A stretch of DNA of 63,941 nucleotides, counting the filler, from Collodictyon triciliatum (taxonomy: Eukaryota), in the NCBI GenBank assembly GCA_043381765.1. It is 10 parts of 9 records of this genome, joined end to end, with 100 filler letters (N's around TTAATTAATTAA, not from the genome) between each part and the next. Parts side by side here need not be neighbours in the genome. Positions count along the whole stretch, not along the records: positions 6,875 to 15,186 come from JBHJMP010004254.1; 9 more parts are not named here. One strand, 5' to 3'. The position numbers and the translations under genes are program-made. Under the pieces are notes generated by a model. That model saw only the letters and a list, made by a program, of their open reading frames with translations, was not told where the DNA came from and did not search any database. Below, in pieces: positions 11,920 through 12,019 of the stretch (the stretch's first letter is position 1; every line of letters starts with the position of its first letter).

Positions 11920-12019
11920 GAGACATCAAAAGTTGTTTAAACCGATCAAGTAGCTAACACTACCTAATCAAAGAGGTATGCTAAGCTCCGTGATGCGATG
12001 CCGCAAGGTGTTGCTTTTT
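11920..12019 (+). ncRNA. RNA X copy 3 (full upstream context)
   Basis: 100-nt core nearly invariant across four copies while the flanks drift. It has a stem UACCU/AGGUA plus UAGC/GCUA, an 8-bp GCAA-tetraloop hairpin (11995-12014) and a T5 run. Confidence 0.65.

Follow-up and report, generated by a model that had tools for sequence, protein, structure and literature searches.

The window analysed here, the whole stretch of 63,941 nucleotides of Collodictyon triciliatum DNA (fillers included), contained four copies of a short conserved core and two copies of U2 snRNA sequence (Table 1). Repeat search and alignment placed the cores at 6875(+), 9525(-), 11920(+) and 14534(-), exactly as the original prediction had stated, and the clustering with U2 that it reported was borne out by the Rfam RF00004 covariance model, which recognized the complete U2 gene with 170.7 bits (E 6.7e-36). 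The second U2 copy was found through an inverted repeat in which positions 7882-8038 matched positions 13476-13632 at 93% identity. In the window, no tRNA genes were found.

Table 1. Features of the cluster, in positions along the window
Feature	Position	Strand	Basis or remark
Probable SL RNA gene, copy 1; leader 6895-6930	6895-6976	+	four-copy alignment, exact search
Probable SL RNA gene, copy 2; leader 9604 down to 9569	9523-9604	-	single G-to-A change in hairpin
Probable SL RNA gene, copy 3; leader 11940-11975 and intron part	11940-12021	+	reference copy
Probable SL RNA gene, copy 4; leader 14613 down to 14578	14532-14613	-	four-copy alignment, exact search
U2 snRNA gene, between SL copies 3 and 4	13346-13538	+	Rfam RF00004, full length
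3' end of second U2 copy, cut by N run from about 8038	7976-8038	-	inverted repeat
Putative promoter region, copy 3	11820-11939	+	ATGTCNNCATATGA near -100; GTATATATA/CATGG block at -47 to -31; invariant -20 to -1
Spliced leader (mini-exon), 36 nt, copy 3	11940-11975	+	mRNA contig ends
Probable SL RNA intron part, copy 3	11976-12021	+	sequence, predicted fold, hairpin scan, comparison with U2 Sm site
GT donor	11976-11977	+	sequence AG|GT across 11974-11977
8-bp GCAA hairpin	11995-12014	+	hairpin scan, fold
T5-GC Sm-like tract, CTTTTTGC	12014-12021	+	likeness to U2 Sm site
Pyrimidine stretch, 95% conserved	12022-12047	+	possible RNA 3' tail or 3'-end formation signal

As a whole, the snRNA cluster formed one large palindrome centred at about 10770, with arms at 6684-10029 and 11510-15377, each of which carried in order an SL copy, U2 and an inverted SL copy. 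Between the arms, the spacers were 94-96% identical and the SL cores 99-100%. Extended microsatellite tracts, (T6G)n and (AAAGAAAC)n among them, were observed at 6656-6760, 15287-15390 and 55895-56419; they flanked the snRNA cluster and recurred elsewhere in the window. In addition, N runs interrupted midway by TTAATTAATTAA, whose letters give a stop codon in every one of the six frames, were seen at 6819-6830, at about 15231-15242 and near 22108, 35846 and 53548.

When the four cores were aligned, their sole difference over 11920-12020 was an A in place of the equivalent of G12000 in the copy at 9525(-). Since G12000 faces T12009 within the 8-bp stem (11995-12002/12007-12014, loop GCAA), this change converts a G.U pair into an A-U pair, and alignment and hairpin scan thus agreed with what had been described for this hairpin. 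The core had also been described as 100 nt long and ending in T5. The T5 run was indeed located at 12015-12019, but the conserved block proved longer and covered 11920-12047, with 98-99% identity between copies in the repeat search and 95.1% among the SL gene copies over 12021-12047.

The limits of this conservation were expressed relative to A11940, the 5' end of the longest leader found on messenger RNAs (see below). Identity was 100% in the 20 nt before 11940, 100% in the 36 nt from 11940 and 98.5% in the next 45 nt. In copy 1 an N run begins 21 nt upstream of the leader; in the three copies with upstream sequence, positions -120 to -21 were 89.0% identical, with 16 of 100 columns variable, and identity fell to 68.3% at -40 to -21, which is the stretch of about 20 nt upstream of the core already noted as variable. 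Past 12048, the copies were 79.2% identical. The near-identity of the core (98.5-100%) against the diverging flanks (68-89%) upheld the earlier idea of a functional small-RNA gene kept uniform. Furthermore, a 23-nt piece of the core had four occurrences in the window, whereas shuffling predicted 0.00.

Of the Rfam 15 families, which include U1, U4, U5, U6, U7, the minor snRNAs, Y, vault and nematode SL1/SL2 RNAs, only U2 reached its gathering threshold in the window. With E values up to 10, the region 11800-12150 gave a lone 9.4-bit snoRNA match, on the opposite strand and outside the core, and no SL family was present among the matches. The core thus gave nothing in Rfam, as had been expected by eye. 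U5, U7, C/D snoRNA and the reverse strand were dismissed on what we take to be their conserved motifs.

The original prediction had left the RNA as one of unknown kind and had overlooked a splice donor located centrally in the core (AG|GT, 11975/11976). As this donor was paired with bases slightly upstream in an energy fold, a spliced-leader (SL) RNA was suspected. The predicted fold of 11940-12021 had a free energy of -22.4 kcal/mol (z -2.13), and 6 of 200 shuffles were as stable. It consisted of 5 free nucleotides at the 5' end, an interrupted long stem, the GCAA hairpin and a single-stranded tail. In the long stem, leader nucleotides 22-26 were paired by folding energy alone with the five bases around the splice site, two at the end of the exon and three at the start of the intron, the four near-identical copies carrying no covariation signal for the fold.

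The tract CTTTTTGC was single-stranded in the predicted fold and had T5-GC in common with the U2 Sm site of the window, ATTTTTGC (13445-13452). Because of this resemblance, it was read as a putative Sm site; it departs from the textbook consensus, purine-A-U(n)-G-purine. No structure was predicted in 12022-12047, a pyrimidine-only stretch, and no 3' stem-loop followed the tract.

The leader was then found on messenger RNAs. Public metagenome contigs were scanned for exact matches to the 23 nt preceding GT (11953-11975), and 64 contigs were obtained; the same exact scan of genome-contig and viral-contig collections returned 0 matches. In every one of the 64 contigs, the match lay at most 13 nt from a contig end and was oriented as a 5' end, 50 contigs being stored in the leader sense (match at the start) and 14 in antisense (match at the far end). 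Beyond G11975 the contigs diverged into 60 distinct 40-mers, and none of the 64 continued with the genomic GTAT. In the gene, the leader directly abuts GT (G11975|G11976-T11977), and it is exactly at this point that the mRNAs break.

Upstream of the match, 0 to 13 nt were present, and these were equal to the window sequence upstream of 11953 in 63 of the 64 contigs. This prefix measured 13 nt in 13 contigs, 12 nt in one, 11 nt in 11, 10 nt in 19, 9 nt in five, 8 nt in one, 6 nt in four, 5 nt in one, 3 nt in two and 1 nt in two; it was missing in five and never exceeded 13 nt. The longest mRNA leader therefore starts at A11940 (13 of 64 contigs), and all leaders end at G11975. In contig L061 (1-13), leader position 3 was T, not C; the leader may have a minor variant, or the base may have been misread.

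Downstream of the leader, the first ATG opened an ORF of 215-1029 amino acids in 63 of the 64 contigs. The median distance from leader to ATG was 9 nt and the median ORF length 423.5 amino acids; in five mRNAs the ATG followed the leader with zero-length spacing. The exception, L034, had a 36-amino-acid ORF and is a truncated twin of L014. These two contigs agreed over the first 40 nt past the leader; L034 could be an isoform, contain an intron that was not removed, or carry a frameshift.

A leader confined to 5' ends, followed by diverse continuations that open ORFs, is the signature of leader trans-splicing. In the window, no ORF was found downstream of any of the four copies. Since the leader is carried by many mRNAs, and in the window is followed by a donor and not by an ORF, it was concluded that all four copies are spliced-leader RNA genes, a reading to which we assign a probability of about 0.93. 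The functional class is thus a known one, of which this is apparently a new member, from a lineage in which the process has not been described.

Where the RNA begins was considered from the mRNA ends and from the promoter. Two starts had been proposed, at about 11924 and at about 11950; the most likely one is A11940, between both. It had also been suggested that CAUCA pairs with UGAUG. Such a pairing is possible in the DNA, but CATCA (11924-11928) is probably not in the RNA, because it lies upstream of the leader 5' end found on the mRNAs. Upstream of this start, the motif ATGTCNNCATATGA was common to U2 (13236-13262) and SL (11835-11861), about 100 nt before the respective starts. Its alignment scores were reached by 11, 18 and 33 of 500 shuffles, and with this modest statistical support it can be proposed as a candidate snRNA promoter element of the lineage. 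Together with a GTATA...CATGG block likewise present in both genes, this motif suggests one snRNA-type promoter for U2 and SL.

The leader is at least 36 nt long and could be longer if library preparation lost the extreme 5' end, because the 20 nt before 11940 are invariant and a TATA-like run, TATATAT at 11895-11901, would fit a start at 11920-11926. This possibility is the basis of a different account of the same SL RNA, in which RNA polymerase III would start at 11920-11926 from the TATA-like box and stop at T5. The product, of about 95-100 nt, would carry a leader of about 50-56 nt and a U-tail bound by La or Lsm and not by an Sm ring. The TATATAT run has a spacing (25-31 nt) that would fit such a start in a U6-like type-3 gene, in which the TATA box lies about 25-30 nt before the start and a T run ends transcription; the invariant block begins exactly at 11920 and not at 11940, the hairpin followed by T5 has the shape of a terminator, and the tract has no 3' stem-loop after it. 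However, none of the 64 contigs reached past 11940 and 13 stopped exactly there, and conservation ran 26 nt beyond T5. In addition, the GTATA...CATGG block of U2, whose start is fixed by homology, is located at about -52 to -39, which is closer to its position in SL when counted from 11940 (-47 to -31) than when counted from 11920 (-27 to -11). To our knowledge, known SL RNAs are polymerase II transcripts of the Sm class, which also speaks against this account; we regard it as unlikely.

A second alternative abandons the splice donor altogether: the gene would encode a novel small RNA, Sm-class or other, and the match at the mRNA 5' ends would be a coincidence or a cis-encoded UTR element. The missing Rfam match agrees with such an RNA, and linkage to U2, a hairpin and a U-tract would fit many small RNAs. 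Against this, 60 different mRNAs carry the leader and depart from the gene sequence precisely at its GT, none of the four window copies is followed by an ORF, and chance recurrence of the 23-mer is not expected (0.00 in window shuffles), so that this explanation appears very improbable. That the mRNA 5' sequence is a laboratory artefact, such as a template-switch or adapter oligonucleotide in metatranscriptome libraries, can practically be discounted, for even though all 64 contigs belong to two consecutively numbered series of data sets, these 36 nt also occur in genomic DNA, in four copies beside U2 with promoter-like flanks and a splice donor, and the ragged contig 5' ends (0-13 nt before the match) are unlike a fixed adapter.

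For the SL RNA gene, the following course of events is proposed. Transcription, probably by RNA polymerase II, would start at about A11940 under an snRNA-type promoter like that of the neighbouring U2, and would yield a small RNA of roughly 80-110 nt. The first 36 nt (11940-11975) would constitute the leader and G11976-T11977 the 5' splice site, held in a stem with leader bases according to the predicted fold. The 8-bp GCAA hairpin would follow, and then the single-stranded T5-GC tract, a predicted binding site for the Sm ring. The spliceosome would join the leader in trans to acceptors that lie a short way before the start codon in many pre-mRNAs, which would thereby acquire a common, presumably capped, 5' end and very short 5' UTRs. 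By analogy with known SL RNAs, capping, Sm assembly, attack by the branch point and joining to an AG acceptor would be the individual steps.

In order to establish the origin of the leader-bearing mRNAs, their products were examined. From their sequences, we take them to include housekeeping proteins of the usual eukaryotic kinds, among them Hsp70, BiP, Hsp60, ATP synthase subunits, P-type ATPases, RPL5 and Sec61. Pfam identified many secreted hydrolases, namely the peptidases fungalysin M36, two M28, an S8 subtilase and one of reprolysin-like type, together with two GH31, an amylase, a GDSL lipase and a carbonic anhydrase. The leader mRNAs of this presumed predatory flagellate include secreted enzymes that form a fungus-like set (L057, L062, L046, L049, L056, L001, L060 and others).

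By exact look-up, nine of ten proteins were present only in JGI/IMG, and their 90% clusters had no NCBI or UniRef member; the protein atlas placed the mRNA products in broad eukaryote clusters only. Against solved structures, RPL5 scored about 378 bits for the top entries and 337-350 for others, values which did not separate lineages; from their entry codes, these structures are presumably of plants, animals and yeasts. In homology searches with two products, the best matches were EukProt transcripts: the M36 peptidase was closest to Diphylleia rotans (77%) and then to Rigifila ramosa (58%), and the coronin likewise to Diphylleia rotans (80%) and then to Rigifila ramosa (57%). The best other named matches among those listed were only at 48-53%, with Basidiobolus, Fonticula alba and several early-diverging fungi for M36, and Paraphelidium and Dictyostelium for coronin. 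Outside CRuMs, the nearest named relatives of the M36 fungalysin were Holomycota, at 48-49% identity. As Diphylleia rotans and then Rigifila ramosa were the closest relatives, these two protein sequences point to a collodictyonid (Diphyllatea, CRuMs), other than the sequenced D. rotans strain, as the source of the mRNAs.

The window and the mRNA lineage are linked by the leader alone. When the 64 mRNA-encoded proteins were compared with the window by tblastn, none of them had a match, and in blastn the mRNA contigs matched the window at the leader only, among the matches listed. Furthermore, GC is about 35% in the window and GC3 is 0.30-0.54 in its ORFs, whereas the mRNAs have a median GC3 of 0.80 and a 3' UTR GC of 0.54. 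In view of this contrast, the window organism may be a relative of the mRNA source and not the same species. Codon bias of highly expressed genes, a repeat-rich region or a related species with a common leader could each explain the difference.

No Pfam family was found in eight window ORFs. The window also contains a 442-codon open frame at 43035-44363(+), for which a word-indexed search gave no match at E 0.001 or better, with 0 among 1.84 billion representatives. Its ATG is directly preceded by CCTAG, after a T-rich stretch. This arrangement would fit a trans-splice acceptor with a zero-length spacer, and may be taken as a hint in that direction.

CRuMs form a deep branch beside Amorphea, and collodictyonids are little-studied freshwater flagellates. 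Leader trans-splicing has a scattered distribution among eukaryotes, and there is debate over whether it is ancient or has originated repeatedly. We give somewhat better than even odds to the broader reading that the present case is the first SL trans-splicing in CRuMs and that it relies on an unusual two-stem SL RNA, lacking a 3' stem and with a non-canonical Sm tract, whose genes are interleaved with U2 in a palindrome and have promoter elements in common with it, and whose 36-nt leader is carried by housekeeping and secreted-enzyme mRNAs. If true, this would represent either a further independent origin of leader trans-splicing or an older common one, and a clear collodictyonid case would put a new major lineage on the trans-splicing map. 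Gene models and transcription start sites in new genomes would have to accommodate the leader and possible operons. The leader would also serve as a tag with which the mRNAs of the organism could be extracted from environmental RNA data.

In the main texts of openly accessible papers, no report of leader trans-splicing in collodictyonids or CRuMs was found. Papers pairing 'spliced leader' with Collodictyon or CRuMs used these terms in unrelated places or, in one case, did not contain the term, as far as the accessible portions of their text go. Neither 'leader' nor 'trans-splic' occurred in the main text of the 2024 Diphyllatea transcriptome paper, of the 2026 Collodictyon/Diphylleia genome preprint or of the Mantamonas genome paper. 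The 2026 preprint presents its own Collodictyon and Diphylleia genome sequences as the first, to its authors' knowledge. A public Diphylleia rotans data set is cited in the preprint 10.64898/2026.06.11.730069. When spelled in DNA letters, 16 nt of the leader occurred in none of the papers searched.

Known SL RNAs include those of nematodes (SL1 and SL2, both Rfam families), flatworms, kinetoplastids and dinoflagellates. Like SL RNAs generally, the present one is encoded by a small multi-copy gene in which GT comes directly after a short 5' mini-exon. In its predicted fold, the first stem pairs donor and exon, and a U-rich single-stranded tract comes after a hairpin; in common with SL RNAs generally are also a leader present on many unrelated mRNAs and the linkage to other small-RNA genes that is often seen. 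Unlike known SL RNAs, it has no sequence or covariance-model similarity to them. Two stems are predicted and not three, and the U-tract is flanked by C and GC instead of the usual purines. The gene partner here is U2, whereas elsewhere it is usually 5S rRNA.

Comparison was extended to protist systems. In the study on cryptomonads (Roy 2017, PMC5619915), SL genes with a 17-nt leader are described in clusters on both strands, and in 36.6% of cases no more than 10 nt separate the leader from the ATG. The present genes resemble them in that SL clusters occupy both strands, the mature leader is invariant among gene copies, similarity stops at a U-rich motif, and very short spacers are in strong excess (median 9 nt here). 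They differ from the cryptomonad genes in the length of the leader (36 nt against 17) and in belonging to a different supergroup, with no likeness in sequence.

Eustigmatophyte SL RNAs have leaders of 40-57 nt and mostly go without a canonical Sm motif (PMC8570151), and Paulinella has a leader of 28-33 nt, no typical Sm site and polyadenylated SL RNAs (PMC6053224). Both sets of leaders are unrelated in sequence to the 36-nt leader reported here. As in eustigmatophytes and Paulinella, a canonical Sm motif or a predicted three-stem shape is absent from the present RNA, and these two cases show that such departures occur in working SL systems.
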